Assembly (NCBI GenBank): GCA_964649705.1
Contig: CAZYRM010000110.1
Coordinates: forward strand, 1 to 21,703
Origin: an uncultured Planctomycetia bacterium
GTDB lineage: Bacteria > Planctomycetota > MHYJ01 > WSZJ01 > CAZYRM01
Direction: 5' to 3'
DNA: 21,703 nt
The notes beneath the pieces are model-generated. The model was not told the DNA's origin, ran no database searches, and worked only from the letters and a program-made list of their open reading frames with translations. Each line of letters begins with the position of its first letter. Positions within the stretch are counted from its first letter, which is position 1. The position numbers and the translations under genes are program-made. Positions 1 through 19,729 of the stretch are shown piece by piece.

Positions 1-1583
1 AGACCGGCAGCATCCAGCCGCGCGAGCAGCTCATCCTCAAGAACGAGGTCGAGGGACAGACCACGCTCCTCTACCTCATCCCCGAGGGGACCGCCGTCAA
101 GGCGGGGGACCTCCTCGCGCAGCTCGACGGGAGCAAGCTCACGGACCAGCGGCTGGAGCAGCAGATCACCGTCCAGAACGCCGAGGCCGGCTTCGTGCGC
201 GCACGCGAGACGCTCGAGGTGGAGAAGAGCGTCGCCGAGAGCAACGTCTCCAAGGAGGCCCTCGCCCTCAAGTTCGCCGGCGACGACCTGAAGAAGTACC
301 TCGAGGGCGACTACCCGAACCAGGTCAAGGAGGCGGAGGCGAGGATCACGCTGGCCGAGGGGGAGCTGAAGCGGGCCACGGAGAAGCTGGAGTGGTCGCG
401 GGTCCTGAGCAAGGAGAAGTACGTCTCCGGGACGGAGCTGGAGGGGGACGAGCTGGCCGAGCGCAAGGCGCGGCTCGACGTGGAGCTCGCGAAGAGCGCG
501 CTCGATCTGCTGCGCGGCTTCACGTACGAGCGGACGAAGACGAAGCTCGAGAGCGACCTGGAGCAGGCGAAGCTCTCGCTGGAGCGGACGAAGCGAAAGT
601 CCAACGCCGACCTGATCCAGGCCGAGGCGGACCTCAAGGCGAAGGAGAGCGAGCACCAGCGGCAGCAGGCGAAGCTCAAGAAGATGGAGGAGCAGCTCGG
701 CAAGACGAAGATCGTCGCGCCGCGCGACGGCCTCGTCGTCTACGCCACGTCGACGCAGGGGGGAGGGGGGCGCGGCGGGGGCTCCGAGCCGCTGGCGGAG
801 GGGCAGGCGATCCGCGAGCGCCAGGAGCTGATCAAGCTGCCGACCGCCGAGGACATGATGGCGGTGGTGAAGGTCCACGAGTCGCGCCTGGACAAGGTCC
901 GCCCCGGGCTGACCGTGCGGCTGACGATCGACGCGCTGCCGGGGAGGCAGTTCACGGGAAAGGTCGTCCGCATCGCGCCGCTCCCCGACGCGACGAACAT
1001 GTGGATGAACCCCGACCTGAAGGTCTACACGACGGAGATCTACATCGACCGGAACTCGGAGGGCCTCCGCACGGGGATGTCGTGCCAGGCCCAGGTCCTG
1101 GTGGCGGAGTACGACGACGCGGTCTCGGTGCCGATCCAGGCCGTGGTGAGGCAGGGCGCCCGCGCGCTGGTGTGGGTCGTGCGCGGAGGGCGCACGGAGG
1201 AGCGGGCCGTCGAGGTGGGCCTCGACAACAACAGGATGATCCACGTCGTCTCGGGGCTGGCGGAGGGGGAGGAGGTCCTCCTTGCGCCGCCGCTCGACGC
1301 GGGGGACCGCACGCCGGCGACTCCTGCGGGCGGCGCCGCGTTGTCGCCCTCCAGCCAGAAGATCGGGACGGGGGGCGCGGCAACGGAGGCGCCCGCACCC
1401 GCGGCGGAGCCGGCCGCCGAGAAGCCGCCCGAGGGCCGGGGCGGGCGGGGGGGCAGGACGCCCGAGGAGCGCGAGGCCTGGAAGAAGAAGATGGAGTCGA
1501 TGACGCCGGAGGAGCAGGAGAAGATGCGCGAGCAGATGCGGAACCGGAAGCCGCCCGAGGAAGGGGAGGGCGGACCGAAGTGA
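1..1583 (+). CDS. HlyD/MacA-family periplasmic adaptor (membrane fusion protein) of a tripartite efflux pump; 5' end lies outside the window
   Basis: The frame is open from position 3 with no stop until TGA at 1581-1583. The translation has long coiled-coil segments (…LEQQITVQNAEAGF…ELKRATEKLEWS…LESDLEQAKLSLERTK…) followed by a beta-barrel/MP domain (KIVAPRDGLVVYA, VRIAPLPDATN, SVPIQAVV), typical of HlyD/MacA adaptors. It has an internal GGGGRGGGS insert and an RGG/EK-rich C-terminal tail. Its stop overlaps the next gene's GTG start (GTGA). Confidence 0.85.
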   Translation, partial: TGSIQPREQLILKNEVEGQTTLLYLIPEGTAVKAGDLLAQLDGSKLTDQRLEQQITVQNAEAGFVRARETLEVEKSVAESNVSKEALALKFAGDDLKKYLEGDYPNQVKEAEARITLAEGELKRATEKLEWSRVLSKEKYVSGTELEGDELAERKARLDVELAKSALDLLRGFTYERTKTKLESDLEQAKLSLERTKRKSNADLIQAEADLKAKESEHQRQQAKLKKMEEQLGKTKIVAPRDGLVVYATSTQGGGGRGGGSEPLAEGQAIRERQELIKLPTAEDMMAVVKVHESRLDKVRPGLTVRLTIDALPGRQFTGKVVRIAPLPDATNMWMNPDLKVYTTEIYIDRNSEGLRTGMSCQAQVLVAEYDDAVSVPIQAVVRQGARALVWVVRGGRTEERAVEVGLDNNRMIHVVSGLAEGEEVLLAPPLDAGDRTPATPAGGAALSPSSQKIGTGGAATEAPAPAAEPAAEKPPEGRGGRGGRTPEEREAWKKKMESMTPEEQEKMREQMRNRKPPEEGEGGPK

Positions 1584-2314
1584 CCTCGGCGCCTGCGACC
1601 GTCGCCGACGGGGGGGCCGCGGCGACGCCTCCCGTCGTCGAGCTCCTCGACGTCCGGAAGACCTACCGCATGGGGGCCTCGGAGGTCCACGCGCTCGCGG
1701 GCGTCAGCGCCCGCTTCGAGCAGGGGAGCTACTGGGCGATCATGGGGCCCAGCGGGTCGGGCAAGAGCAGCATGCTGAACCTGCTCGGGTGCCTCGACCG
1801 CCCGACGAGCGGGACCTACCTGCTGCGGGGCCAGGACGTCAGCCGCCTGCCCGACAACGAGCTCAGCGAGCTGCGCCTCAGGCACCTGGGGTTCATCTTC
1901 CAGAGCTTCCACCTCATCCAGCAGCTCACGGTGAGGGAGAACATCGAGCTGCCGCTCTACTACCTGGGCTGGGAGCCTCACGTCGCGGCGGAGCGCGCCA
2001 CGCGGCTGGCGGAGCAGGTGGGGCTGGGGGACAGGCTGGAGCACCGCCCGAACGAGCTGTCGGGCGGGCAGCAGCAGCGCGTCGCGATCGCGAGGGCGCT
2101 GGCGAACGACCCGCCGATCCTGATGGCGGACGAGCCGACGGGGAACCTCGACTCCGCGACCGGCGAGCAGATCATGGCGCTGATCGCCCGCCTGAATAAT
2201 GAGGGGAAGACGGTCATCATGGTGACGCACGAGCCGGACATCGCGGCGCACGCCTCGTACCGGATGCACATGCGGGACGGCCGCGTGGAGAGCATCGAGG
2301 AGGGGAGGCGATGA
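1580..2314 (+). CDS. ABC transporter ATP-binding subunit, MacB/LolD-like (ATPase only, about 244 aa)
   Basis: GTG start at 1580 overlaps the upstream stop (GTGA), with a GGAGGGGAGG-like Shine-Dalgarno (SD) sequence upstream. Walker A GPSGSGKSS, Q-loop, ABC signature LSGGQQQRVAIARAL, Walker B ILMADEPTGNLD and H-loop VTHEP are all present. The N-terminal LLDVRKTYRMG is typical of the MacB/LolD family. The track's long 392..2314 ORF is only an N-terminal extension in another gene's space. Confidence 0.9.
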   Translation: MTSAPATVADGGAAATPPVVELLDVRKTYRMGASEVHALAGVSARFEQGSYWAIMGPSGSGKSSMLNLLGCLDRPTSGTYLLRGQDVSRLPDNELSELRLRHLGFIFQSFHLIQQLTVRENIELPLYYLGWEPHVAAERATRLAEQVGLGDRLEHRPNELSGGQQQRVAIARALANDPPILMADEPTGNLDSATGEQIMALIARLNNEGKTVIMVTHEPDIAAHASYRMHMRDGRVESIEEGRR

Positions 2315-2315
2315 C
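2280..2315 (+). repeat. 36-bp direct repeat, copy A (gccgcgtggagagcAtcgaggaggggaggcgatgac) covering the last 11 codons of the ATPase and its ATGA stop
   Basis: It is identical at 35 of 36 positions to 9558..9593, which sits immediately at the start of the FtsX permease gene. Both copies contain a GGAGGGGAGG SD sequence and ATGA. Confidence 0.85.
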
Positions 2316-2458
2316 CGCCTGCCGGGGAGTCTGCCACACGATTGAGGTCCGGAGGTTGCGCGACAGCCTGGAGTCTGGGACAATTCGCATCCGATTCTGG
2401 GTCCGAGGCGGTCGAGAGGCCGCCGGCCCTCGCCCGGTCGGATATCGCGGACTCCGCC

Positions 2459-4780
2459 ATGGTTCGAGTCGTCGTTGCCGGGCTGCCCGACATCGCGGTG
2501 TGGCTTGCCCGCCGCTTTCCCGGCGCGACGATGCTCGCTACGTCGACGGTCGAGGAGACACGCTCCGCACTCGCTGAGGGCGAGTGGACGGCGCTCCTCA
2601 TCGACGACCGTCTCGACGGCCAGCCGGGCAAGAGCCTGGTCGAGCGACTTCGCGCGCACCCATGCTACGCCCGTCTCCCCATCCTCTACTGTCTCGCCCA
2701 GCGGCCAGCGGGGGAGCAGGCGAAGCGGCTGGTCGCGGACCTGGGCGTCCACCGGCTCCTCGTTCAGCCCGTGGACCGGGAGGACATCGCGCGCCACATC
2801 GCCTCCCTCGCCAGGGTCCCCCTTCCCCCCACTCTCGAAGCGAGCGAGGTGGACCCGGAAGAGCGCGCCGAGTTGATCGAGATTTGGGAGAAGTACCGCG
2901 ACCAGCGCAGGGAGCGTATCGCGACGCTGGAGCTGGCGACCCTGGCGATCCGCTCGCGCACGCTCGACGCGTCGCTCGCCATGCGTGCGGAGGCCGCAGC
3001 GCACTGGCTCGCGGGCTCGGTCGGCACGTTCGGATATCTGGACGGCACACGCATCGCGCGTTCCCTCGAGCGCGTTTTCAAGGTGCTCGCCCCTTCGGGG
3101 TCGGCCGACGCGGAGCAGGTGGCCGAGCTCCTGGGGGCCCTGCAGGCGGAGCTTTCCCGTCCGCCGCTCGCCGCCACCCCGTCCGCGGCTCCCGCCGGAT
3201 CGATGACGGAGGGGGAGGATGCGCCGTACCTGCTGATCGCCGACGACGACCCGGCCGTGGGAGAGGCGCTGGCGAGGGAGGCGGGTGGGCGGGGCATGCG
3301 AACGACCGTGGCGACCGACATCGCCTCCGCGCGCGAGGCGGCGCGACGGGAACGGCCCTCGGCTGTCGTGCTCGACCTCGCCTTCCCGGGAAACACCGAG
3401 GGCGGCCTGGCCCTTCTGGCGGAGATGGGGTCGATTCAGCCGCCCATCCCGGTCCTGATCCACACTTCGTCGGACGAATTCTCGCACCGGGTCGAGACGG
3501 CGAGGCTCGGCGCGGGAGGGTTCCTGCACAAGCCGCTCTCCCCCGCGGCGGTCCTGACCGAGGTCCAGGGCCTGCTCCAGCGCGTGCGCTCGGCGCAACC
3601 GCACGTCCTCGCCGTGGACGACGACAGCGGCCTGCTGGCCGCCCTTCGCGCCCGCATCCAGGCGCAAGGCGTCCGCGTGACCACGCTCGACGACCCGCTC
3701 CGGTTCTGGGACGTGCTGGAACACGCCTCCCCCGACCTCCTCGTGCTGGACGTGGAGATGCCGCACGTCGGGGGCATCGAGCTCTGCCGCGTCGTGCGGA
3801 ACGACGCCCGATGGTCGAGGCTGCCGGTCCTTTTCCTGACGACCCACGTCGAGCCCGACGTCGTCGAGCGGCTCTTCGCCGCGGGCGCGGACGACTACGT
3901 GACGAAGCCGATCATTGGAGCGGAGCTGATCACGCGGATTCGCAACCGCCTCGACCGCGTCCGCCTGCACCGACGGCTCGCCGAGACCGACTTCCTCACC
4001 GGCGTCTCGAACCGCCAGCGCTCGGGCGAGACCCTCGAGAAGCTCCTGCGACTCGCCGAGCGGCAACGGGCGCCGTTGAGCGTGGGCCTCCTCGACCTGG
4101 ACCGCTTCAAGGACGTGAACGACACGCACGGCCACGCGGCGGGGGACGCCGTCCTCGCCCGTCTCGGGAGGCTGCTGCTGCGCACCTTCCGCGGAGAGGA
4201 CGTCGTCGCGCGGTGGGGCGGGGAGGAGTTCGTCGTCGGCATGTACGGGATGACGAGGAACGACGGCGTGGAGCGGCTCGCGCAGGCGCTCGAGGCCTGG
4301 CGCACGGAGGAATTCGCGGGGAAGGAAGATGCGAAGTTCCACTGCAGTTTCAGCGCGGGGATCTCCCAGTACCCGTGCGACGGGGGGAGCCTTGATGCGC
4401 TGTACCGGGTCGCGGACGAGGCGCTCTACCGGGCGAAGCACGAGGGACGCGACCGGATCGTACCGGCCGGACCAGGAACGGAAGCGGCGGGCGACGACGG
4501 GGCCATCGCCGTCGCCGTCGCGGACGATGCGACGGCCGCGATGGTCCGGCGTGCGCTCGTCACGCGGGGGTACCGCGTGTGGGCCGCGCGCGACCAGGAG
4601 GCGATGCCCCGCGGGAACGGAGCGCGCGTCGCCGTGATCGGCGGCGAGGGGCCGCCCGACGGGCTCGATGCGGCCGCGATCCTGCGGATCGAGAGTCCCG
4701 TGCTCCTGGCCGATGTCGTCAGGCGCGTGAGATTCGCCATGGAGGGGGACCTCCGCCGCGCGATGGCGGAGGCCCCGTAG
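2459..4780 (+). CDS. Multi-receiver response regulator with GGDEF diguanylate cyclase domain (PleD-like; REC-like, REC, REC, GGDEF, then a degenerate REC-like C-terminus)
   Basis: Receiver signatures include LLIADDDPAV…VVLDLAFPG…FLHKPL and HVLAVDDDSG…LLVLDVEMPHVGG…DYVTKPI. The GGDEF domain has the active-site motif RWGGEEFVV plus DLDRFKDVNDTHGH and YRAKHEGRDRIV. Start is placed at ATG 2459 (MVRVVVAGL). An in-frame TTG at 2342 is an alternative. No clear SD sequence is visible. Confidence 0.8.
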   Translation: MVRVVVAGLPDIAVWLARRFPGATMLATSTVEETRSALAEGEWTALLIDDRLDGQPGKSLVERLRAHPCYARLPILYCLAQRPAGEQAKRLVADLGVHRLLVQPVDREDIARHIASLARVPLPPTLEASEVDPEERAELIEIWEKYRDQRRERIATLELATLAIRSRTLDASLAMRAEAAAHWLAGSVGTFGYLDGTRIARSLERVFKVLAPSGSADAEQVAELLGALQAELSRPPLAATPSAAPAGSMTEGEDAPYLLIADDDPAVGEALAREAGGRGMRTTVATDIASAREAARRERPSAVVLDLAFPGNTEGGLALLAEMGSIQPPIPVLIHTSSDEFSHRVETARLGAGGFLHKPLSPAAVLTEVQGLLQRVRSAQPHVLAVDDDSGLLAALRARIQAQGVRVTTLDDPLRFWDVLEHASPDLLVLDVEMPHVGGIELCRVVRNDARWSRLPVLFLTTHVEPDVVERLFAAGADDYVTKPIIGAELITRIRNRLDRVRLHRRLAETDFLTGVSNRQRSGETLEKLLRLAERQRAPLSVGLLDLDRFKDVNDTHGHAAGDAVLARLGRLLLRTFRGEDVVARWGGEEFVVGMYGMTRNDGVERLAQALEAWRTEEFAGKEDAKFHCSFSAGISQYPCDGGSLDALYRVADEALYRAKHEGRDRIVPAGPGTEAAGDDGAIAVAVADDATAAMVRRALVTRGYRVWAARDQEAMPRGNGARVAVIGGEGPPDGLDAAAILRIESPVLLADVVRRVRFAMEGDLRRAMAEAP

Positions 4781-4855
4781 TCGCGCTCTCGAGGCGCACA
4801 CGTCGGCCGCCCCGCGGAAGGGCGGGGGGCCGCACACCGTGGAGGGATGGCCGAG

Positions 4856-5236
4856 ATGCCGAAGATCCTGCTTGTCGAAGACAACGAAATGAACCGCGAC
4901 ATGCTGTCGCGCCGACTCGAACGGCGCGGCTTCCAGGTCTCGATCGCCGTCGACGGCAAGGCGGCCCTCGATCTCGTCCGGACCGAGCTTCCCGACCTGG
5001 TCCTCATGGACATGAACCTCCCCGAGATCGACGGCTGGGAGGCCACCCGACGGCTCAAGGCGGACGAGGCCACGCGCCCGATCCCCGTTCTCGCGCTCAC
5101 CGCGCACGCCATGGCGGGCGACCGGGACAAGGCGCTCGCGGCGGGGGCCGACGACTACGACATCAAGCCGGTCGAGTTCGCGCGCCTCGTGGGGAAGATC
5201 GAGGCTCTCCTGAAGAGGACGCCGCCGAAGGCGTGA
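4856..5236 (+). CDS. Single-domain CheY-like response regulator receiver
   Basis: The translation reads MPKILLVEDNEMNRDML…DLVLMDMNLPEIDGWE…DYDIKPV. GGAGGG at 4841-4846 sits 9-10 nt upstream of ATG 4856. An in-frame ATG at 4847 is too close to the SD sequence to be the start. Stop is TGA at 5234-5236. Confidence 0.88.
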   Translation: MPKILLVEDNEMNRDMLSRRLERRGFQVSIAVDGKAALDLVRTELPDLVLMDMNLPEIDGWEATRRLKADEATRPIPVLALTAHAMAGDRDKALAAGADDYDIKPVEFARLVGKIEALLKRTPPKA

Positions 5237-5273
5237 TGCGCGCCGCCCCATTCGAATCCGCAGAGAGACCCGC

Positions 5274-7705
5274 ATGTTGAACGCCCTTCGCCGCGCCCTG
5301 GTCCGCCGACCGATCGTCGCCATCAGCGCGCTCGTCCTCATCGCCGGCGTCGCCATCGTCTTCCTCATGAACCGCCTGGCGACCAACCTCCTGGAGTTCA
5401 AGGCCGCCCGCGACGCGTCCCTCTACTCGACGGCGCTCGCCGAGTTCCGCACGCTCTACACGTCCGAGGTCGTCGCCACCGCCACGGCGAACGGGATCGA
5501 GGTCACCCACGACTACAAGAAGAAGAAGGGGGCCATCCCGCTGCCGGCGACGCTCAGCATGCTGCTGGGCGAAAGGATCGGGGTGCACGAGTCGGGGGCC
5601 GAGAGCCATCTCTATTCCCCGTATCCCTTCCCGTGGCGCGCCGCGGAGGGGGGCTTCGCGACGGGTTCCGCAAGGCGGCCTGGGACCATCTCAACGCGGA
5701 GCCCGAGGGCGCCTACTACCGGTTCGAGACGGTCGGCGGCAGCCCCGTGCTCCGGTACGCCACGGCTGACCGCATGCGGCAGGCGTGCGTGAACTGCCAC
5801 AACTCGCACCCCGACAGCCCGAAGACCGACTGGAAGGAGGGAGACGTCCGCGGCATCCTGGAGGTCGACCTCCCCATGGTGGCGGCGCAGACGGAGACGC
5901 GGAGGGAACTGCTCGGGACGACGGCCCTCCTGGCCGGGATGGCCGCGGTCGGGCTCGGCCTGCTCGCGCTCCTCATCGGCGGGCTGCGGAGGACGTCGAG
6001 CGACCTGGAGACGAACGTTCAGAAGCTCCGCGAAGCGCACGAGCAGCTCAGGGTCAGCTACAACACCGTCGAGGAAACGGTGCGGACGCGGACTTCCGAG
6101 CTTCAGACGAGCATGAACGACCTCGCGCGCGCGAACCAGGCGCTGGACGAGGCGCGGGAGCTTGCCGAGCAGGCGAACCGCACGAAGAGCGCCTTCCTCG
6201 CGAACATGAGCCACGAGCTGCGTACGCCCCTCAACGCGATCATCGGGTACAGCGAGATGCTTCAGGAGGAGATGTCGGGGGAGGGGCGCGACGCGCACGT
6301 CGCCGATGCGGAGAAGATCCGCGCCGCGGGACTCCACCTGCTGCGCCTGATCAACGAGGTGCTCGATCTGTCGAAGATCGAGGCGGGGAAGATGGTGCTC
6401 GCGCCGGAGACGTTTGACGTGGCGCGACTCGTCGATGACGTCGTCAGCACGGTCCGCCCCCTCGCGGAGCAGAACTCGAACCGTCTGATGGTCGAGGTCG
6501 CCCCCGACGCTGGCGACCTCTACGCAGATTTGACGCGGGTACGCCAGACGCTGTTCAACCTCCTCAGCAACGCGTGCAAGTTCACGCGGAACGGCGTGGT
6601 GACGGTGAAGGTCCGCCGGGAGAGCGCCGCGGATGGCGGCTGGATTTCGATGGCGGTCACGGACACCGGCATCGGGATGAGCCCGGAACAGGTCTCGAAG
6701 CTCTTCCAGGAGTTCCAGCAGGCGTCCTCCTCCACCGCGCGCGAATACGGCGGCACGGGATTGGGGCTCGCGATCACGCGCAGGCTCTGCACCCTGATGG
6801 GCGGGGAGGTGACCGTGACGAGCGAGCCGGGGAAGGGCTCCACGTTCACGGTGCGGCTCCCCGTCGCGCGGGAGGCCTCGCCTGCGCGAGAGGAGCCGAT
6901 CGTCGGCGCCTCACCCGCCCTTCGGCACGAAGCCGCTTCCGGACGCAACCTCGTCCTCTCGATCGACGACGAGCCATCGACCCTCGAGCTGCTCTCCCGC
7001 TTCCTGGGCAAGGAGGGCTTCACGATCGTCACGACGACCAGCGGGGTCGAGGGGGTGAACCTCGCACGGAAGCTGTCGCCGATCGCCATCACGCTCGATG
7101 TGATGATGCCCGGGACCGACGGCTGGGAGGTGCTGACGATGCTCAAGAGCGACCCGGCCACCAGGGACATCCCCGTCCTCGTGTTGAGCATTCTCGATCA
7201 GCAGCAGACGGGCTTCGCGCTCGGGGCGTCGCACTACCTCATGAAGCCGATCGACCGCGACGCGCTCGTAGGAGTGCTCGCCCCCTACCGCCGCGTCGAC
7301 GGCGCCGCAAAGGTCCTGGTCGTCGAGGACGACCCCGACAGCCGCGACCTCGCCCGGAGGATCGCGGAGCGGCAAGGCTGGAGCGTCACGGAAGCCGTGA
7401 ACGGGCGCGAGGGACTGGAGCGCATGGTCGAGGTGTCCCCCGACGTCGTCATCCTTGACCTCATGATGCCCGAGCTGGACGGGTTTGAGTTCCTGAAGGA
7501 GATGAGGCGCGAACCGAAGTGGCGCACCGTGCCGGTGATCGTCGTCACCTCGAAGGACCTGACGACGGAGGACCACATGCGCCTGAACAACGGCGTGCTG
7601 AAGATCCTCCAGAAGAGCAAGATCACGAAGGACGACCTGCTGAGCGAGATCCGCGACGCGCTGCATGGACGGATCGCGACCTCCATCCGCCCGCAGGTCT
7701 CGTGA
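5274..7705 (+). CDS. Hybrid sensor histidine kinase: N-terminal TM, periplasmic DUF3365/Tll0287-like heme-c sensor (CxxCH), TM, HisKA, HATPase_c, two REC. It is interrupted by a single-base frameshift in a G6 run (5648-5653), so it is a possible pseudogene or sequencing error
   Basis: Frame 0 (5274..) gives an N-terminal TM helix and the first half of the sensor (…[15 protein letters not shown]). Frame 2 (from 5633) continues seamlessly with [13 protein letters not shown]…YYRFE…[41 protein letters not shown]. That is followed by a TM helix, the H-box [23 protein letters not shown], a HATPase (GGTGLGLAI) and two receiver domains (ITLDVMMPG…YLMKP and [12 protein letters not shown]…). Inserting one G restores a continuous ORF. 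Confidence 0.8.
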
Positions 7706-9372
7706 CGACCGTCGGTCCCGGGCCTCGCCGCCCCGCGCCCAGCGCGACGTGGATCGCCCTGGTCGCTGCGGCCTACGTTGTCACCGGCCGGCTAGGGATC
7801 GCGGCAGCGCTCCAGCAGGTCACTTCTGTCTGGCCCCCGTCGGGTCTTGCCCTCGCCGCGGTCCTCCTCCTCGGTCCGCGCGCGGCGGCCGGGGTGGCCC
7901 TCGGCTCCTTCCTCCTCAATTTCGGCCTCACCTTCGACCGCGCCCGCCCGGTCGCGTCGGTCGCCGTCGTCGCGGCAATGGCGGTCGGGTCGACGATCGA
8001 GTGCCTGGTCGGGCGCGCGCTGCTCCTGCGCTTCGCCCGCGGCGCAGCCTGCCTCGACCGGGCCGCCGACGTCTTCCGCTTCGTGGCGCTGGCAGGGCTA
8101 CTCAGCCCGACGCTCGCAGCGACGATCGGCGCCGCTGCCCTGACCCTGGGAGGCCCGCCCTCGCACCGCGGATTTGGCCCCATCTGGTCCACCTGGTGGA
8201 TCGGGGACGCGGTCGGCGTCTTCGTCGTCGCGCCACTGCTGCTCGCCTGGGCGCGAGAGCCGCGCCTTGCGCGCGACCCCTGGCGCTGGGCGGAGGCCCT
8301 GCTCCTCGGCGGGGCGGTCCTCGCGGTCGCGCTGACTGCGTTCCGCGCCGGCTACCCCGTCGAAACGCTCGCGATCCCGTGTCTGGTCTGGGCCGCCTTC
8401 AGCTTCGGCGCTCGCGGCGCGACTCTGCTCACCGTCGTCCTCGCGGGGATCGCGGTCTGGGGAACCGTCCACGGGCACGGCACCTTCGCCCGGACGACGC
8501 TCGGCGAGTCGCTCGCCTTCCTCCAGACGTTTGTCGGCGTCGTCGCGGTCTCCTCCCTTGCCCTCTGCGCCGTGCTCGCCGAACGCGCGGCCCGGTCCGT
8601 CGACCTCCTCCGCGCCATGGAGGAGTCGACCGCCGCCCGCGTCGCGGCGGAATCGGCCAACCGCGCGAAGACCCTGTTCCTCGCCAATATGAGCCACGAG
8701 CTCCGCACGCCTCTCAACCACATCATCGGGTACGCCGAAATGCTCCAGGAGGACGCGGAGCGGGAAGGGCGCGCGGAGGCCGTGTCAGACCTGAAGAAGG
8801 TCGTCACGTCCGCGCGCTCGCTCCTGGGGGTCCTTCATTCGATCCTCGATGCCGCCCGGCTGGAGGCGGGCACGATCGACCTGACCATCGGCGAGTTCGA
8901 CCTCTCCTCGGTGGTCTACGAGGTGAGGGGCCTGACCCTCCCCCTGGCGGAGGCGAACGGCAACACGCTGGAGGTCCGGGTCGCCAACGGGATTGGCCCT
9001 GTTCGAGGTGACCGGGAGAAGGTGCGCCAGGCCCTCCTCCATGTCGTCGACAACGCGTGCAAATTCACCAGGAACGGCGCAATCTCCGTGGCGGCGTCGC
9101 GGGAGACCTGGGGAGGACGTCCCTGCCTTGCCATCGTCGTGTCGGACACGGGAATCGGGCTGGGTAAGGAGGAGATCGACGGGATCTTCCGTCCGTTCGT
9201 CCAGGTCGACGCCTCCCCCACGCGGCGCTACGGAGGCCTCGGTCTGGGCCTCTCGATCGCACGTCAGTTCCTTCAGATGCTCGACGGGGATCTATCGGTG
9301 ACAAGCGTGCCGGGCCAGGGATCGACGTTCACGCTGCGGCTGCCCGACGGCGTCCTGCCCAGCGGAACCTGA
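7702..9372 (+). CDS. MASE1-domain sensor histidine kinase (HisKA + HATPase_c)
   Basis: A GTG start at 7702 overlaps the upstream TGA (GTGA). The N-terminal polytopic membrane domain has the MASE1 signature (…[34 protein letters not shown]…). The H-box [23 protein letters not shown] is near-identical to that of the upstream kinase. The HATPase region carries DNACKFT…[12 protein letters not shown]…[11 protein letters not shown]. Stop is TGA at 9370-9372. Confidence 0.8.
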
Positions 9373-9557
9373 CGTCGTCGTGACCGCGCGAGCGGCTGCT
9401 TCGGACTCACCAGGATCCCCGCGCCCCGCGCGTCCGCTTCGGATGCGCTGCGGGGCGGGTGCGCGGATGCGGCGCTCGCAGCTTCGCGCTTGCCACGGCC
9501 GAGCGCCGCATGCTTCCATGTCGGACAGTCCGAGAGGGCGGGGACATGGCTCCTCGC

Positions 9558-9593
9558 GCCGCGTGGAGAGCGTCGAGGAGGGGAGGCGATGAC
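9558..9593 (+). repeat. 36-bp direct repeat, copy B (gccgcgtggagagcGtcgaggaggggaggcgatgac) at the start of the permease gene
   Basis: It differs from copy A by one mismatch. In one frame it encodes the orphan peptide …RVESVEEGRR*, and its ATGA supplies the ATG of the FtsX permease. Confidence 0.85.
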
Positions 9594-10857
9594 GTTGCGG
9601 AGGTGGCTCAGGGACGTCCGGCTCGGCGTGAAGACGCTGCTCCTGCACAAGCTGCGCTCCTTGCTGACGATGCTCGGCGTGGTGTTCGGCGTGGGGAGCG
9701 TGGTGGCGATGCTGGCGGTGGGGGAGGGGGCGAGCCGCGAGGCGCTGGAGCAGATCCGGAAGCTGGGGAGCCACAACGTCATCGTCACGGCAATGAAGCC
9801 GACCGAGGAGTCGACCTCGAGCACTCAGCGCATGCGGATGCTGATCTACGGGCTGACGTACGAGGACGAGGTGAGGGTCAGGGAGGGGTTCGCGTCGGCG
9901 ACGCGGGTCGTTCCGGCGAAGATCATCCGCAAGGAGGCGAGGCTCGGGGAGCGGACGCTGGAGCTCAGGGTGGTGGGGACGACGCCGGAGTGGTTCGAGC
10001 TGGTGCCTCGGCCGCTGCTGGCGGGGCGGATGCTCCTCGCGTCGGACCGCGAGCAGCGGACGAACGTGGCGGTGCTGACGGAGTACGGCGCGCGGAGGCT
10101 GCTGGCGGCCTCGAACACGCTGGGGCAGGTCCTCAGGGTGGGGACGCACGCCTTCGAGGTGGTGGGGATCGTGCGGAGCGAGGGGGGGCAGGGGAGCAGC
10201 GTGCAGACGCCGGACCAGGAGGTGGACGCCTACATCACGATCGACGTGGCGCGGGCGCGGTTCGGCGACGTGTTCACGAGGATGAGCTCGGGGTCGATGG
10301 AGCGGGAGCAGGTGGAGCTGCACCAGCTCATCGTGGAGGCGCGGTCGCTGGACGAGGTGGAGCCGATGGCCGCGGCGCTGCAGGCGATGTTCGACCGGTT
10401 CCACCCGAAGAAGGACGTGCGGATCAGCGTGCCTCTGGCGCTGCTGCGCCAGGCAGAGGCGACGAAGCGGACGTTCAACATCGTGCTGGGCTCCATCGCG
10501 GGGATCAGCCTGCTGGTGGGCGGGATCGGGATCATGAACATCATGCTGGCGAGCGTGACGGAGCGGACCAAGGAGATCGGGATCCGAAGGGCGATCGGGG
10601 CGAAGCGCAGGCAGATCGTGGGTCAGTTCCTGATCGAGACGGTGGTGCTCTCGTCGATCGGCGGTGTGATGGGGGTGGCGCTCGGGATGGCGATCCCGCG
10701 GGTGATCACATACGCGGCGGGGATGCCGACGGTGGTGACGCCGTGGAGCGTGGCGCTCGCGTTCGGCATCTCGGGGGCGGTGGGAGTCGTCTTCGGCCTG
10801 TACCCCGCGGTGCGCGCCGCGCGCCTGGACCCGATCGAGGCCCTGCGCCACGAGTAG
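9589..10857 (+). CDS. ABC transporter permease, FtsX/MacB family, with a large periplasmic domain
   Basis: ATG at 9589 is preceded by GGAGGGGAGG. The translation MTLRRWLRDVRLGVKTLLLHKLRSLLTMLGVVFGVGSVVAMLAVGEG shows the MacB N-terminal TM1. A periplasmic domain of about 200 aa follows, then three C-terminal TM helices with the FtsX motif (IMNIMLASVTERTKEIGIRRAIGAKRRQI…). The track start at 9490 is an upstream extension. Confidence 0.85.
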   Translation: MTLRRWLRDVRLGVKTLLLHKLRSLLTMLGVVFGVGSVVAMLAVGEGASREALEQIRKLGSHNVIVTAMKPTEESTSSTQRMRMLIYGLTYEDEVRVREGFASATRVVPAKIIRKEARLGERTLELRVVGTTPEWFELVPRPLLAGRMLLASDREQRTNVAVLTEYGARRLLAASNTLGQVLRVGTHAFEVVGIVRSEGGQGSSVQTPDQEVDAYITIDVARARFGDVFTRMSSGSMEREQVELHQLIVEARSLDEVEPMAAALQAMFDRFHPKKDVRISVPLALLRQAEATKRTFNIVLGSIAGISLLVGGIGIMNIMLASVTERTKEIGIRRAIGAKRRQIVGQFLIETVVLSSIGGVMGVALGMAIPRVITYAAGMPTVVTPWSVALAFGISGAVGVVFGLYPAVRAARLDPIEALRHE

Positions 10858-10865
10858 GGAGGCCT

Positions 10866-10900
10866 CTCGGGGCCCGCGTCGCAAGGCGGGGGCCCTCGCT
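10866..10900. terminator. Possible bidirectional GC-rich hairpin between the convergent permease and PDZ-protein genes
   Basis: The sequence ggggcccgcgtcgcaaggcgggggccc forms an imperfect stem (ggcccgc / gcgggggcc) with no U-tract. It lies in the 69-bp convergent intergenic gap. Confidence 0.25.
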
Positions 10901-10926
10901 CTTAATGGCTCGCACGGGCGCCTGCG

Positions 10927-12342
10927 CTACTTCTTCCCGAGATCGCCGGCGAGGAGCGGGAGCTTCCCCTTCGGGAGCTGCAGGATGAGGACGTAGCTCG
11001 CCGTGGTCCAGACCGGCCCCATCTCGCGGTCCAGGTTCCTGACGGATCCGAGCCCCGCCGCCGTGGGGTGCGCGCGGAACGCCCCGTCCAGGCATCGCGA
11101 CGAGAGCATCTCCAGGCGGAACACCTCGTTGAACGGCTTCCAGGATGCGCTGCCCAGGTGCGTGCACGCGAGGGCCGACGTCGTGAAGTGCATCACGGGG
11201 GAGATGTGGCTGGTCGGGATCTTGTCGAGCGACCCCTTGAAGAACGAGGACATCTTCGGGAAGAACGGGTGCTTCTGGAGGCCCAGGAGCGAGAACCCCC
11301 ACAGGCACCCCGACGTCCGTCCAGGCTCGCCGTTCCTCTGGCCCGCGCGGTAGCCGATCCCCCCGTCCCCTGGGCTCGCCGAGACCGCGTACGCGACCCC
11401 GCGATCGACCGTCTTCTGCGGGACCTTGAACCCCGCCTTCTTCAACGCCCCGAGCGCGCAGAGGCACCAGTTCCCCGCGATCTGCAGCTCGACGTACTTG
11501 AGCGCGTTCGGCCCGCCCGGCCCGTGCGCCCACCCGCCGCTCGCCTCCTGGCCCCGCTCGATCGCCGCCATGGTCTCCTCGAGCTTCGCCTTCAGCCCGT
11601 CGCTCGGCGCGATCTGGTAGACCTGGCAGAGGAAGATCGCGGTGTAGGCGTACCCCCAGTTCGTCTGGTTCCAGTTCCCCGGCGGGAATCCCGCCAGCTC
11701 CTCGGCCGTCGCCGCCTTGCCGCAGTTCTTCGAGACGAAGTCGACTCCCTTGCGGAGGTTCTCGGCGTACGGCCCCTCCGTCTGCGTGCTCCCTGAGGCG
11801 AGGAGCGCGAGGCAGACGAGGCTGGTCATCACGACTTCGCCGTTCGTGGCGCTGTACCTCGCGTCGTAGCCGCCGTCGCCCCGCTGCTTCGAGGCGATGT
11901 ACTTCAGCGACTCCTCGATCACCTTCTCGCAGCGCGCGCACCCGGTCGGACAGGTCGCGGCATGCGGACCCGGGGAGGGGAGCTCGATCGGGAGGTTCTG
12001 CTTCTTCCCGCCGCGCATGACGAGGAGCGAGAGCTTGGGGTCCTTCTTCGACTGGGCCTTCTCAAGGAGGTCGACGAGCTGGTAGACGAGCAGCGACTTC
12101 GGGTTCGTGAAGGCCTGGGTACCGACGCCCGCGATCACGTCCCCGGGCGCAAGGCCCGCGGCCTTTGCGGGCGCACCCTCCGCGACGGAGGTGACGCGGA
12201 GGCCCCAAGCCCCCCCGGCCAGCCCGTCGCCTCCCTTCTGCGGGAGGCCCTCCGCGCCAAGCGGGCCCAGGTTGAAGGACGGCTCCTCGGCGGCGACGGC
12301 GAGGCAGGAGCAGAGGAGGAGCACGGAGCGCAGGGTTGCCAT
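10927..12342 (-). CDS. Secreted PDZ-domain protein with prenyltransferase/squalene-cyclase-like alpha/alpha-toroid repeats
   Basis: ATG at 12342 has GGAGG 7 nt upstream. A signal peptide MATLRSVLLLCSCLAVAAEE is present. The PDZ region reads GLRVTSVAEGAPAKAAGLAPGDVIAGVG…LLVMRGGKKQNLPIEL. Repeated QxxDGG(W/Y)-type motifs (KQRGDGGYD, QEASGGWAHGPGG, PGDGGIGYRAGQ) are characteristic of prenyltransferase/terpene-cyclase repeats. Stop is TAG at 10927-10929. Confidence 0.7.
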   Translation of the reverse strand: MATLRSVLLLCSCLAVAAEEPSFNLGPLGAEGLPQKGGDGLAGGAWGLRVTSVAEGAPAKAAGLAPGDVIAGVGTQAFTNPKSLLVYQLVDLLEKAQSKKDPKLSLLVMRGGKKQNLPIELPSPGPHAATCPTGCARCEKVIEESLKYIASKQRGDGGYDARYSATNGEVVMTSLVCLALLASGSTQTEGPYAENLRKGVDFVSKNCGKAATAEELAGFPPGNWNQTNWGYAYTAIFLCQVYQIAPSDGLKAKLEETMAAIERGQEASGGWAHGPGGPNALKYVELQIAGNWCLCALGALKKAGFKVPQKTVDRGVAYAVSASPGDGGIGYRAGQRNGEPGRTSGCLWGFSLLGLQKHPFFPKMSSFFKGSLDKIPTSHISPVMHFTTSALACTHLGSASWKPFNEVFRLEMLSSRCLDGAFRAHPTAAGLGSVRNLDREMGPVWTTASYVLILQLPKGKLPLLAGDLGKK

Positions 12343-14510: not shown

Positions 14511-14921
14511 TTGAAGTACCTCTGGGACACGAACACCCTAATCTACTGGCTGAACGGCGACACCCGCGTCGAGGCCCTCCGCCTGCAACGTGGGTCCGAC
14601 AACATCGGCCTGTGCTGGCCGGTTGTCCTGGAATTGGTCCTGTGCACCAGCCAGTCCACGAACGTCGAGCGCAATATCCGGAACGCTGTGGAGGTCATCG
14701 CTGCGTTCCAGCCTATCCTCGAGTCTGACGGCGCCGTGATGGACCGTTTCTGCGCCTTGCGCGCTCAATTCAAGGCGAAGGCGACCCCGAAGCCCGAGAT
14801 GGACGTGCTAATCGCCGCCCACGCCCTCGTTCACGACCTGACGCTCGTCACCTCCAACGGCGCGGACTTCGAAGGCACCCCAGACCTCCGGATCGAGGAT
14901 TGGAGGTCTAGTTCCCGATGA
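14511..14921 (+). CDS. PIN-domain toxin (VapC-like ribonuclease)
   Basis: A TTG start at 14511 gives (M)KYLWDTNTLIYWL. Conserved acidic residues match a PIN domain (DTN…, VVLELV, LVTSNGADF). Its stop overlaps the ATG of the next gene (ATGA at 14918-14921). Local GC is visibly lower than the surrounding DNA. Confidence 0.75.
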   Translation: MKYLWDTNTLIYWLNGDTRVEALRLQRGSDNIGLCWPVVLELVLCTSQSTNVERNIRNAVEVIAAFQPILESDGAVMDRFCALRAQFKAKATPKPEMDVLIAAHALVHDLTLVTSNGADFEGTPDLRIEDWRSSSR

Positions 14922-15703
14922 CAACGACTTCGCGCGAATACGAGCTCTTCACGCAGATCGTCTACCAGGCGCTGGTGCGCGAGGTCCCCGACACCCGGGT
15001 GGAGCACGACGTCCAACTCTCCGATCCCTCCGGGGTCGAGCACCAGGTGGATGTCTATCTTGAGTTCAAGATCGCCGGACACGTCTACCGGACGATCATC
15101 GAATGCAAGCAGTGGACGCGCATGGTAGACGTGGGACCTGTCACCGACTTCTACGGCCTGATCCAGTCCCTGGGCGTCGAGAAGGGGATCATGGTCTCCA
15201 AGCTGGGCTTCAGCGATCCGGCGAGGGAATTCGCGCACGCCAGGGGGATCGACCTCGTCCAACTTCGGAAGCCTAGCGAGGAGGACTTGGAGAGACGCAT
15301 CAAGAGGATGGTCGTCCGTGTCAGCTTCTACATCCCCGAAATCGCCGACGTTGCCCTCGAACCGGCGACGGCTGCAGTGTCGTCTCGGGATCTAGCCGTG
15401 AACACGGGCGAGGCCAGGATTGTGGATGCGGGGTCGGGGCGGGAGGAGACCTTGCAGTCCGTCCTGCAACGAACCCTGCCCAAGGGTTGGCCAGAGGACT
15501 GGCAGACTGTGACGATTCCTCTCGGCGCTGGAACTGTTCTGGCGGTGGGTGGCGAGCGCATACCCGTCTCCGAGCTGCGGTTCCGTGCGAGGTTTCACCG
15601 GGCCGATGAACAGGTACTCCTCGACGGGGAGGCCATCGTCCGCGCGATCCTGCGCGATGTCTTTACCGGCGAGATCCGCACGGTGCGCCGCGTCGGCGCC
15701 TGA
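14918..15703 (+). CDS. Mrr-like restriction endonuclease-fold protein (PD-(D/E)xK nuclease; N-terminal Mrr_cat domain plus an uncharacterised C-terminal domain of about 120 aa)
   Basis: The translation reads YELFTQIVYQAL…HQVDVYLEF…YRTIIECKQWTRMVDVGPVTDFYGLIQSLGVEKGIMVSKLGFSDPAREFA, with a D…E-C-K catalytic triad arrangement. It is translationally coupled to the PIN gene. Stop is TGA at 15701-15703. Confidence 0.72.
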   Translation: MTTTSREYELFTQIVYQALVREVPDTRVEHDVQLSDPSGVEHQVDVYLEFKIAGHVYRTIIECKQWTRMVDVGPVTDFYGLIQSLGVEKGIMVSKLGFSDPAREFAHARGIDLVQLRKPSEEDLERRIKRMVVRVSFYIPEIADVALEPATAAVSSRDLAVNTGEARIVDAGSGREETLQSVLQRTLPKGWPEDWQTVTIPLGAGTVLAVGGERIPVSELRFRARFHRADEQVLLDGEAIVRAILRDVFTGEIRTVRRVGA

Positions 15704-18800: not shown

Positions 18801-19616
18801 CTCGAGGCCCGGGTCGCCCGCCTCGCGGGCGTCGAGGAGGGCCTGGGGCAGGACGCCGGGCGTACCGCCTGCCTGCGAGAGCAGGAGGCGCGCCTCGGAG
18901 CGTCCCGAGGCGCAGCCGCGTCCGTCGAAGAAGGCGAGCGCCTTTTCCAGCGAGGCGCGGATGGCGGTCGTGTCGGCCGCGTGCGCGTCGAGGCGGAGGC
19001 GCGCCGAGCGGAGGCGCAGCGTAGCGGGCGTCAGGGAGAGCCCGGCCTTCTCGGCCGCCTCGATGGCGGAGTCGAGCGTGTCGGCCGCGGCGACGAGGTC
19101 GAGCCCGCCCTCCTGCAGCGAGGCGGCGGCGATGGCGTCCAGCAGATCGAAGGCGATTTGGACGTCCCGCTCGAAGAAGAGCTGATCGCCGAGCCACTGG
19201 AAGTCCCGCGCCAGGACGGCCGCGTCGAGCACGTCGACGCCGTCGGGCGCGTTCCCCATCACCTCGAGCTGGACGAGGCACGCGGCCTCCAGGCCCACGT
19301 CGCCGGCCGCGGCGGCCTCCCTGGCGGCCTCGGCCATGAGGCGGCCCGCGAGCATCGGCACGTCCTTCCCCTCGGCGGCCCCCGCGGCCTCGGCCTCGTA
19401 TCGGATTTCGGCGAGGTCGCTCAGGCAGCGCGCGGCCTCGGCGTGGAGCCGGTCACGACGCGCGGCCGCGACGCACAGGCGAAGCGTCTCGGTCGCCTCC
19501 GCGACCTGATGGGCGTCTCTCTGATCGGCGGCGAGTCGTCGCTGATCGCGGATCCACGAGGCGGTGTCGGCGGAGGCGACGACGGTAGCGATGAGGAGGA
19601 CGAGGGCGGTGCGCAT
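15855..19616 (-). CDS. Large secreted protein (1253 aa): signal peptide, Ala/Leu-rich helical region, HEAT/PBS-lyase-like repeats, Ig-like CARDB-type domain, C-terminal helical/coiled-coil region
   Basis: ATG at 19616 has AGGAG about 9 nt upstream and gives the signal peptide MRTALVLLIATVVASA. The track's GTG at 19646 adds 10 aa. HEAT-like repeats are visible (…LYLLGVLARRGDASALQALRDALASDDAETRWHASVILGRLG…). A beta-rich segment reads …PDLVAAELVVEPSVPRPGEETTLTLRARNVGKA…MDEGNNVCEIDVPLYV (CARDB-like). Stop is TGA at 15855-15857. Confidence 0.65.
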   Translation of the reverse strand: MRTALVLLIATVVASADTASWIRDQRRLAADQRDAHQVAEATETLRLCVAAARRDRLHAEAARCLSDLAEIRYEAEAAGAAEGKDVPMLAGRLMAEAAREAAAAGDVGLEAACLVQLEVMGNAPDGVDVLDAAVLARDFQWLGDQLFFERDVQIAFDLLDAIAAASLQEGGLDLVAAADTLDSAIEAAEKAGLSLTPATLRLRSARLRLDAHAADTTAIRASLEKALAFFDGRGCASGRSEARLLLSQAGGTPGVLPQALLDAREAGDPGLEARILQALARDAEASVRDPLLAAAGQAEERRRRAVLERAERAIADSEGAVGAAEELRAEITGRPDDDEEVHRLLSALGFGGPPPRRALPGTMREHLVALLRGDSCFGAYAGLETVRAHDAWPVLAEEAPRSERPDVALGALESLATREDLPKLFGLTASEDKEVASAAAAAIFRLATEGALARPRLLIEGTPDPLMAALERKPGPGVVLYLLGVLARRGDASALQALRDALASDDAETRWHASVILGRLGFASPLLGLGADRAPSSAITRLRILARAPSEWGPHIVMEAAGEDAPPWMAARANQARGVRDRVLGLDEEDNIWSLIFRLPRTPEEGRICGTAWITRIADELWNDASGDTLTWVTEGLGLDFHDGEGKLRKRAGNPIADFALEDLEFRRFGAIAGAQTRVLTIGDRSAWATLRCTVVPKEGEIVDNALRLPFQVKYRTSQGTDGSLAGAIGGVAISITLSTLFPEAEVRIPGFAPIAGEVGMLDEDGVVVSAPLPVEGEGEGLATGKLIPLEKIAEGTVTLRLRVDKARASMTFPLAFLVPPKKDKPDLVAAELVVEPSVPRPGEETTLTLRARNVGKAVEKGGVLSVRFSVLNPQSGEGKRTIDVRLFGADGWRPGEWKTFEARPKVVQDWYMNKYAMSWTLEMGDTRLSARIDADGKLEEMDEGNNVCEIDVPLYVPDEEGKKAGEDELLGKLAAILEQVRAATTDLDARVQIGVMRTLLKGAHVSTPATEVACRHVEAAVEMQVHRLRVDEALRQVEELAKDPAANQERLKAIHAELVGARTAVLDSGVPVTKDTITWWRNRVQATANAAGSAGEYGELSGILTGVESETPDALKKVSESLNRLDGVLQLMRYARDRVKGGDADNGDAIQGMISIAGSAPGMSKLHQAMLQAEIDYVDKGFRKEANALEALGDLIEGKQGAQERLDAAVKDVEGHVGGGPFNEAARKNIILGAVKDVPVLGKLVDMILSWK

Positions 19617-19729
19617 GGCGGGGCTCCTGTTGAGGTCGAGGTGCACGGTCTACCGTGCGCGGGCGCGGAGGTCAACGCGAATCAGGCATCGCGCGCCTCG
19701 CCCCGATCGAGGCCCTGCGGCCGTGTCGC

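Follow-up and report, generated by a model that had tools for sequence, protein, structure and literature searches.

In current models of the receiver-controlled diguanylate cyclases PleD, WspR, and DgcR, phosphorylation drives dimerization of the GGDEF domains. In PleD, the second of two tandem receivers (REC domains) is an adaptor that lacks the phospho-accepting aspartate. Here we describe a cyclase that carries additional domains on such a core. It is encoded by a four-gene signaling cassette in a 21,703-nt stretch of planctomycete DNA (contig CAZYRM010000110.1, forward strand), which is called the window below. Comparative analysis suggests that this region is probably a multistep phosphorelay cassette with cyclic di-GMP (c-di-GMP) synthesis as its output, and shows that an insertion confined to this lineage placed it between ATPase and permease genes that are otherwise neighbors in a conserved efflux operon.

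The closest characterized analogue is a relay from Anabaena in which CdgK (histidine kinase, REC1, REC2, and Hpt domains) signals to CdgS, a REC–GGDEF cyclase. This pathway was established by phosphotransfer assays and mutants, and the activity of CdgS is raised by phosphorylation (PMC9927289). The pathway proposed for the window likewise would run in the order His–Asp–His–Asp, from a two-receiver hybrid kinase to a cyclase controlled by receivers. However, the Hpt domain of CdgK is located at the C terminus of the kinase, whereas the Hpt domain in the window is fused to the cyclase, upstream of the cyclase receivers. Moreover, the window cassette encodes a second kinase and a stand-alone receiver, and its cyclase has six domains, whereas Anabaena CdgS has only the simple REC–GGDEF arrangement.

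Among cyclases of known structure, Caulobacter PleD (PDB 1w25), DgcR (6zxm), and WspR (3bre) resemble the window cyclase in having a receiver-controlled GGDEF domain with an RxxD I-site, and PleD also shares its tandem-receiver layout. Unlike the PleD adaptor, both tandem receivers of the window cyclase are canonical and retain the expected Asp, Thr, and Lys residues. Hpt domains, N-terminal pseudo-receivers, and C-terminal receivers are missing from all three of these proteins, whereas the window cyclase has each of them as a domain or remnant.

Organization of the signaling cassette

The DNA of the window has a GC content of about 70%, and exact-protein look-ups located the same DNA in groundwater metagenome assemblies from Hainich well H51. 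These include three replicate ENA assemblies (L001, L004, and L005) and independent Logan assemblies. The locus in L004 is the same as that in L001 except for stretches of N. Genes were mapped by using Pfam, NCBIfam, and codon-position GC content. The cassette is composed of the following features, where open reading frames are abbreviated ORFs:

2316–9557, + strand: inserted signaling cassette of 7242 nt, encoding the cyclase, a CheY-like protein, split kinase 1, and kinase 2

2459–4780, + strand: cyclase gene (Pfam, NCBIfam)

4847–5236, + strand: CheY-like stand-alone receiver (Pfam Response_reg, E 2.8e-27)

5274–5792, + strand: 5′ ORF of kinase 1 (translation, alignment with intact homologues)

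5633–7705, + strand: 3′ ORF of kinase 1 (Pfam Tll0287-like, HisKA, HATPase_c, and two Response_reg matches)

5648–5653, + strand: run of six G residues (G6), the site of a one-base deletion that splits kinase 1

7702–9372, + strand: kinase 2 (Pfam MASE1, HisKA, HATPase_c)

A first-pass annotation of this DNA had recognized a c-di-GMP and two-component module with the CheY-like gene located between the cyclase and the kinases, and this arrangement is indeed present. The same annotation had counted two whole kinase genes. This count does not hold, because kinase 1 is split into the ORF at 5274–5792 and the ORF at 5633–7705. In addition to this frameshift, the Hpt domain of the cyclase and the receivers of kinase 1 had been overlooked.

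A cyclase with a built-in Hpt domain

The cyclase has the layout pseudoREC–Hpt–REC–REC–GGDEF–REC remnant. Its parts, given with amino acid positions and the evidence used to assign them, are as follows:

2459–2815, + strand: N-terminal pseudo-receiver, residues 1–119 (hhalign, AlphaFold2, family alignment)

2879–3148, + strand: Hpt domain, residues 141–230 (Pfam Hpt, E 8.9e-7, 29.5 bits versus a cut-off of 24.6)

3230–3592, + strand: canonical receiver REC2, residues 258–378, with DDD 262–264, D306, T336, and K358 (Pfam Response_reg, family alignment)

3605–3943, + strand: canonical receiver REC3, residues 383–495, with DDD 387–389, D431, T461, and K483 (Pfam Response_reg)

3980–4456, + strand: GGDEF catalytic domain, residues 508–666, with GGEEF at 587–591 and the RxxD I-site at 578–581 (Pfam, E 9.2e-37)

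4505–4777, + strand: C-terminal receiver remnant, residues 683–773 (family alignment, hhalign 98%, AlphaFold2)

The phospho-acceptor of the Hpt domain, His182 (codon 3002–3004), is invariant in 24 of 24 aligned family members, and the AlphaFold2 model contains a helical bundle over residues 133–232. The two canonical receivers directly precede the GGDEF domain, and the listed pocket residues of REC3 are all invariant in the family alignment. For residues 371–668, the best solved relatives are DgcR, PleD, and WspR. The protein scores 205.6 bits with the NCBIfam PleD equivalog model, which is below the cut-off of 474. The GGEEF site is intact, as had been reported earlier. A complete loss of phosphorylatable aspartates from the cyclase receivers had been named as an outcome that would refute the first reading of the module; D306 and D431 are both present.

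The remaining two receiver-like domains are degenerate. There is no Pfam domain match in the N-terminal 119 residues of the cyclase. This segment aligns to receiver profiles by hhalign with a probability of 92%–94% and an E value of about 1e-7 (for REC3, 92% and 5e-7), and its AlphaFold2 model has a full (βα)5 fold with a pLDDT of about 90. The acidic pair is gone, the conserved Thr position is occupied by Cys, and the conserved Lys position by Gln. In the C-terminal remnant, the phospho-accepting Asp is replaced (VIGGEG) and ∼36 amino acids that include the Thr and Lys positions are deleted; the same domain is canonical in relatives. AlphaFold2 predicts a truncated fold for this remnant, with pLDDT values of 54–85. 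Phosphorylation of the pseudo-receiver and of the decayed C-terminal receiver is not expected. The earlier description of two canonical and two degenerate receivers is therefore accurate, whereas the accompanying suggestion that four receivers might integrate several phosphorylation inputs is overstated, since a full phospho-acceptor pocket is found in only two of the four domains.

Two kinases and a stand-alone receiver

The two kinases carry different sensors, as had been proposed. The 5′ ORF of kinase 1 encodes an N-terminal membrane helix and the first half of an sCache_heme (Tll0287/DUF3365) sensor, followed by 46 out-of-frame codons. The 3′ ORF encodes the second half of the sensor with the CVNCH motif, a second membrane helix, HisKA (6185–6388), HATPase (6527–6868), and two receivers. 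The Tll0287-like Pfam match (E 1.7e-11) covers profile positions 76–144 only. The H-box histidine is H314 in the numbering of a repaired protein. The first receiver (REC-a, approximately 6950–7288) has D609 and K658, and the second (REC-b, 7313–7651) has D729, T759, and K781. Because of these two C-terminal receivers, kinase 1 is a hybrid kinase.

Kinase 2 is composed of MASE1 (7756–8586, E 2.6e-38), HisKA (8665–8871, E 5.8e-16, with H332), and HATPase (9007–9348, E 1.6e-23) domains, and it has no receiver. Its GTG start codon overlaps the stop codon of kinase 1 in the sequence GTGA at 7702–7705. This overlap was part of the first description, and gene callers applied to four assemblies choose the same start. 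Kinase 2 is colinear with P0238, an 853-aa MASE1 hybrid kinase, with 38% identity over 585 aligned positions. It terminates 8 aa past the end of this alignment, whereas P0238 continues for ∼270 aa into one or more receivers.

The H-box histidine, N-box, DTGIG, and GGxGLGL elements were located in both kinases, and all of these catalytic boxes are intact. The H-boxes of the two proteins are nearly identical, exactly as they had been quoted. However, a recent paralogous origin of the kinases was rejected in view of their cores, which share 47% identity over 248 residues without gaps, whereas kinase 1 is 54%–59% identical to other hybrid kinases in the database. The H-box motif also is invariant in 10 homologues of kinase 1. 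The likeness therefore reflects a subfamily consensus and is not evidence of a recent duplication. For both cores, the best partial matches in NCBIfam are the hybrid kinases BarA, TorS, and LuxQ.

The CheY-like protein, for which gene callers choose a start at position 4856, has the residues D12, D55, T84, and K107. Several of its strong partial matches in NCBIfam are receiver domains of hybrid kinases (BarA, TorS, RcsC, LuxQ, and HrmK). It is 61% identical to a CheY-like protein that is encoded next to a kinase 1 orthologue at another locus, L045, which is described below.

Relatives of the cyclase and their usual neighbors

The pseudoREC–Hpt–REC–REC–GGDEF–REC layout is widespread. In cyanobacteria it occurs with a Trans_reg_C domain appended, and it also is found in metagenome-assembled genomes (MAGs) labeled as Gemmatimonadota/Longimicrobiaceae, Symbiobacteriia, and Solirubrobacterales. 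Family members are 41%–52% identical to the window cyclase (best non-self match 52%) and have the same domain order, and the window protein aligns with 96% query coverage to relatives of 800 aa. The Hpt histidine, the receiver aspartates, GGEEF, and RxxD are family invariants. All six domains are colinear with those of the window protein, which differs in having lost a working C-terminal receiver.

Some database entries of this family bear the name "response regulator," and others that of "diguanylate cyclase (GGDEF)-like protein." The Leptolyngbya boryana proteins Dgc4, Dgc8, and Dgc9 are cyanobacterial forms of the family that were named but not studied (10.1101/2022.01.10.475764). In the literature searches, no title or abstract was found that describes a characterized Hpt-containing cyclase or a HEAT–GT2 partner of the kind introduced below. 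The cassette cyclase is a clear example of a widespread and unstudied architecture, in which an Hpt step is built into the output enzyme beside four receiver-like domains.

The genomic neighborhoods of the family were surveyed by exact look-ups and by a metagenome scan followed by tblastn, which yielded 29 loci with Hpt-containing relatives of the cyclase. A scan of species-representative genomes with the cyclase returned generic domain matches only (28%–44% identity over parts of the protein) and no orthologous locus. A stand-alone receiver is encoded on the same strand within ∼530 nt upstream of the cyclase in 15 of the 28 loci that have enough upstream DNA, and a histidine kinase core is encoded upstream in 14 loci. 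Downstream, a HEAT_2 protein is present in 14 of the 21 loci with enough DNA, followed in 13 of these by a family 2 glycosyltransferase (GT2). HEAT_2 and GT2 genes on the same strand, where the latter encodes a chitin/cellulose-synthase-like protein, were observed at loci L040, L041, L046, L047, L050–L052, L054, L061, L068, and L070–L072. The combination of relay, cyclase, and polysaccharide synthase looks like a widespread, uncharacterized module. This family-wide pairing points to an unexplored form of polysaccharide control, and may be a more rewarding lead than the cassette itself, although it lies outside the window.

Locus L045 has a different distribution of the same functions. There, a kinase 1 orthologue (53%–61% identity), which is the nearest intact homologue of kinase 1, and the CheY-like protein adjoin a stand-alone Hpt protein, a REC–GGDEF–REC protein, a HEAT protein, and a GT2 enzyme. 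The recurrence of the same functional parts, split differently among proteins, supports a relay of the order kinase–receiver–Hpt–receiver–GGDEF.

A probable multistep phosphorelay

All parts expected of a phosphorelay are present in the cassette: histidine kinases with an H-box and ATP-binding boxes, receiver aspartates, an Hpt histidine, and terminal receivers coupled to a GGDEF domain. Acceptor and catalytic residues are complete in kinase 2, the CheY-like protein, Hpt, REC2, REC3, and GGDEF. The cassette is a well-formed but partly decayed relay, and its architecture is new while its principle is not.

In the proposed mechanism, kinase 2 would sense its signal through MASE1 and kinase 1, if it is made, through the remainder of its sensor. 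Autophosphorylation would occur at H332 of kinase 2, and at H314 of kinase 1 if that protein is made at all. The phosphoryl group would then be transferred to an intermediate receiver, for which the candidate acceptors are D55 of the CheY-like protein and D609 and D729 of kinase 1. From there, it would pass to the cyclase's own Hpt domain, at His182, and then to D306, D431, or both in the tandem receivers. By analogy with PleD, WspR, and DgcR, receiver phosphorylation would promote GGDEF dimerization and c-di-GMP synthesis, with product inhibition exerted at the RxxD site. Since the hybrid-type core of kinase 2 is not joined to any receiver, this kinase most likely acts in trans, via the CheY-like protein or the receivers of kinase 1. 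With the kinase 1 heme sensor disrupted by the frameshift, the only input in this population that retains an intact sensor is probably the MASE1 kinase.

The earlier view of the locus as a self-contained phosphorelay controlling c-di-GMP is thus upheld with regard to domain content, and it is strengthened by the Hpt domain and by the receivers of kinase 1. It is weakened by the frameshift in the kinase 1 heme sensor.

Several observations weigh against the relay as drawn here. The putative partners are assigned from gene neighborhood and domain logic. Instead of being an obligatory intermediate, the CheY-like protein may serve as a phosphate sink or as an output on a side branch, because in most relatives its gene is located upstream of the cyclase even where the kinase has its own receiver. 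The window version is atypical in this respect, with the CheY-like gene downstream of the cyclase. The HEAT–GT2 pair is absent from the window, and the position after the cyclase is occupied instead by the CheY-like protein and the kinases. Of 28 conserved columns in the Hpt region, 11 differ from the family consensus in the window cyclase, where the Hpt histidine is followed by Trp rather than by the Lys found in the family. Finally, a scan of positions 1500–11,000 for consensus promoters and terminators revealed no promoter-like sites and three terminator-like sites versus 2.3 expected, a result that carries little information for a non-model genome of 70% GC and does not delimit the transcription units.

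Some of these features could also be explained if the cassette were a relocated and degenerating copy of the kinase–CheY–Hpt cyclase–HEAT–GT2 module that no longer signals. All assemblies carry the kinase 1 frameshift, the cyclase lacks the Asp and ∼36 aa of its C-terminal receiver, and the usual HEAT and GT2 partner genes are missing. Furthermore, the cyclase deviates at 44 of 218 highly conserved columns, which is the second highest count among 24 members. However, this number is unevenly distributed, with 13 of 28 columns affected at the C terminus and only four of 70 in GGDEF and four of 51 in REC3, and the latter two domains are well kept. Much of the divergence may reflect phylogenetic distance from relatives that are mostly Gemmatimonadota-like. 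Every ORF is open apart from the single frameshift, the GC content at third codon positions (GC3) of 0.88–0.92 is typical of coding sequence in this genome, and the catalytic boxes of both kinases are intact. We therefore consider a silent remnant to be unlikely, although it is the strongest competitor of a functioning phosphorelay.

It is somewhat less likely still that the kinases phosphorylate the cyclase receivers directly in a two-step scheme, leaving the Hpt domain vestigial or used for dimerization or back-transfer. Kinase 2 has no receiver and could be a classical kinase, and no other functional domain of the window cyclase has diverged as much as the Hpt region. Nonetheless, the Hpt histidine and its surrounding motif are invariant across the cyclase family, whose members are paired with hybrid kinases that need an Hpt step. 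Both kinase cores of the cassette also belong to the hybrid class according to their best NCBIfam partial matches.

Insertion into an efflux operon

The phosphorelay cassette is flanked on both sides by genes of an ABC efflux pump, as the first description of the locus had stated. The features that define this boundary are as follows:

1–1583, + strand: periplasmic adaptor (MFP; YknX/MacA-like) of the ABC efflux pump (Pfam HlyD_D23 and HlyD_3; NCBIfam RND_mfp, 132 bits, above the cut-off)

1580–2314, + strand: ABC ATPase, MacB/LolD-like (Pfam ABC_tran, E 1.1e-33)

2280–2315, + strand: left copy of a 36-nt direct repeat (native 3′ end of the ATPase gene, Shine–Dalgarno-like GGAGG, and ATGAC)

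9558–9593, + strand: right copy of the 36-nt direct repeat (native Shine–Dalgarno-like sequence and ATG of the permease gene)

9589–10857, + strand: MacB-type permease (MacB_PCD and FtsX; Pfam)

The MFP ORF is open at the 5′ edge of the window, with no stop codon in positions 3–200, and the protein is 583 aa long in L001. A gene for the outer-membrane factor (OEP) is located upstream of MFP, as seen in L004. The top NCBIfam partial match of the ATPase is the N-terminal half of MacB. This inventory of OEP, MFP, ATPase, and MacB_PCD/FtsX permease corresponds to that of MacAB–TolC and YknXYZ pumps, and the ATPase and permease are separate proteins as in YknYZ. Unlike in these related systems, the ATPase and permease genes of the window are 7.3 kb apart, with the cassette between them.

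In the three closest relatives of the pump, the genes for OEP, MFP, ATPase, and permease are contiguous and no signaling genes are present. The permeases of these relatives are 87%, 78%, and 75% identical to that of the window and come from MAGs with Planctomycetes or Phycisphaerae annotations. For the remaining pump proteins encoded at these loci, identities are 66%–81% (for the L128 orthologues, 78% for MFP and 81% for ATPase), and therefore the operons are orthologous. In two of the three, L128 and L129, there is a 4-nt overlap between the ATPase and permease genes as called. In the window, 7274 nt separate the ATPase stop codon (ending at 2314) from the permease start (9589).

A repeat search revealed that this separation is bounded by a direct repeat of 36 nt, GCCGCGTGGAGAGC(A/G)TCGAGGAGGGGAGGCGATGAC, whose copies are identical at 35 of 36 positions and spaced 7278 nt apart. 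The repeat corresponds to the ancestral junction, comprising the last ATPase codons, the Shine–Dalgarno-like GGAGG, and ATGAC, and it is present as a single copy in L128 and L129. Alignment scores on either side of the repeat ends are within the range of shuffled sequences, so similarity could not be extended beyond the 36 nt. As a result of the duplicated junction, the ATPase keeps its stop codon and native end, and the permease its native ribosome binding site and start codon. The best homologues of the cassette proteins are only about 50%–53% identical, in contrast to the 75%–87% observed for the permease. Together, these comparisons show a lineage-specific insertion of the cassette into a conserved efflux operon, accompanied by duplication of the 36-nt junction.

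With regard to genome evolution, a multigene cassette was dropped into a tightly coupled gene pair, and the 36-nt duplication preserved the expression signals of both flanks. The cassette shares flanking direct repeats with integrative elements. However, other hallmarks of such elements were not found: By Pfam, the cassette proteins are all signaling proteins without integrase or transposase domains, which counts against an insertion, and terminal inverted repeats of a convincing kind did not emerge from the repeat search. When the ATPase protein was looked up by exact match, which might have exposed an allele with an empty site, cassette-bearing contigs only were returned. We also considered GC3 as a sign of foreign origin and set it aside as weak evidence: The pump genes have a value of 0.97 versus 0.88–0.92 for the cassette genes, while the other genes of the window span 0.81–0.95.

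Three additional features of the flanking DNA were observed. First, the ancestral permease ATG is kept at position 2311 in the left repeat, where it opens an 88-codon ORF (2311–2577, + strand) without homology. This ORF overlaps the cyclase start out of frame, and ribosomes that re-initiate after the ATPase stop codon could translate it. Second, L005, the replicate R1 assembly, agrees with the window throughout the cassette except for one substitution, whereas at L005 positions 9392–9949, compared with window positions 10587–10858 and beyond, the last 270 nt of the permease gene are only ∼93% identical and the downstream DNA is different. This divergence could stem from a recombination tract, from a chimeric contig, or from the presence of a second allele or a paralogue within the community. 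Third, the MFP terminates (1380–1583, + strand) in a low-complexity stretch that abounds in G, R, E, and K (…GRGGRGGRTPEEREAWKKKMESMTPEEQEKMREQMRNRK…), which is unusual for periplasmic adaptors.

A functional tie between the cassette and the pump is not supported

From the location of the cassette, it had been suggested that the pump may be regulated by, or act on, the c-di-GMP signal. Such coupling could take the form of a pump controlled by c-di-GMP or by the relay, or of a pump that exports something tied to the signal. The genes are co-oriented with no recognizable terminator between them, and therefore the permease may be transcribed by read-through from the cassette. Also, the duplicated junction keeps the permease translation signals, so the pump probably is still made.

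However, conservation of the linkage was not observed: Within 9–10 kb of cyclase relatives, 0 of 29 loci have a gene for a MacB permease or an MFP, and signaling genes are absent from the three closest pump operons. Rfam models, including those for c-di-GMP riboswitches, gave no match in the window at gathering thresholds or in the two cassette spacers at E values up to 1. Searches of the MFP, ATPase, and permease with Pfam and NCBIfam did not reveal PilZ or any other known c-di-GMP receptor domain. In the literature searched for MacB and c-di-GMP, no title or abstract describes a link. Nothing supports a functional tie, and the proposal appears improbable. Co-transcription of the cassette with the permease is possible as a consequence of insertion, and is not evidence of shared function. 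This locus illustrates that the neighborhood of genes within an operon need not equal a shared function when annotations are made.

A more speculative scenario is that permease expression depends on transcription through the relay cassette, such that natural rewiring has left a pump subunit and signaling genes co-expressed and functionally linked, that the 36-nt repeats permit reversible excision, and that, separately, the G6 run serves as a mutational on/off switch for heme-sensor input. We regard this as a long shot.

A frameshift within the kinase 1 heme sensor

The N-terminal half of the kinase 1 sensor is in frame with the ATG at 5274, whereas the second half with CVNCH and everything downstream is in the −1 frame. 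Addition of one G to the G6 run generates an 810-aa protein that is colinear over 97%–99% of its length with intact homologues of 780–820 aa (P0123–P0135). The repaired junction, EGGLRDGF, closely resembles EGGLRDDF of P0124. Apart from the frameshift, kinase 1 shows no further damage in the alignment with homologues.

This pattern might be explained if kinase 1 actually were made intact, either because the shift is an assembly artefact, because the G tract is phase variable, or because ribosomes or RNA polymerase bypass it. The shift is located in a homopolymer, where the frame would be restored by slippage of −1 on G GGG GGC. To our knowledge, however, G-only heptamers are not among the efficient slippery sites, which counts against bypass. 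Folding of the 80 nt located 3′ of the G run is no better than that of shuffled sequences (z = 0.15), and there is thus no stimulatory structure. The G6 run is identical in L001, L002, L004, and L005, which represent the three replicate ENA assemblies and one independent Logan assembly. A collection of 5.8 billion proteins contains kinase 1 solely as a truncated call of 652 aa and lacks an intact allele, and the next match is 53% identical. G6 runs are common in the window but not enriched, as the 22 examples are fewer than expected by chance.

There is precedent for a frameshifted phosphorelay gene that remains productive. Despite its frameshift, the rcsD gene of Yersinia pestis gives rise both to full-length protein and to a C-terminal Hpt fragment that is functional (PMC10191623). 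Like the kinase 1 mutation, the rcsD frameshift is fixed in a natural population, and in that case the products have been shown to be functional. Given the agreement among assemblies and the lack of an intact allele, production of an intact kinase 1 seems doubtful at best.

Our conclusion is that this population truly carries the frameshift, which disrupts the periplasmic heme sensor of kinase 1. The heme-binding half of the protein is left without the N-terminal membrane anchor needed for export. Other sCache_heme domains that are fused to signaling modules show traits characteristic of nitric oxide sensors (preprint 10.64898/2026.02.01.703092), and NO sensing has been proposed as a role for this class. 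The kinase 1 domain is similar to these sensors in being a periplasmic Cache-type domain with a CxxCH motif fused to a histidine kinase, and differs in being cut by the frameshift. Annotation that silently reads through such a frameshifted sensor kinase would overstate the sensing capacity of the organism.

Other genes in the window

Several genes outside the cassette and the pump also have noteworthy characteristics. A PIN-domain gene (14511–14921, + strand) and an Mrr_cat restriction-endonuclease-like gene (14918–15703, + strand) overlap by 4 nt and are located in the lowest-GC stretch of the window (0.62–0.66). This pair may be a small acquired toxin or defense island; PADLOC gave no match for either gene. 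A 628-aa protein encoded at 19730–21616 (− strand) has an N-terminal SPFH/Band 7 domain fused to a Ser/Thr protein kinase domain. The kinase part strongly matches the PD-T4-6 models of PADLOC, which may merely reflect the generic kinase fold. A 1263-aa ORF at 15855–19646 (− strand) has a coding-like GC3 of 0.93 and weak matches to HEAT_2 and CARDB only. Finally, the gene at 10927–12342 (− strand) is convergent to the permease gene and encodes a DUF6288 protein with an N-terminal PDZ domain.

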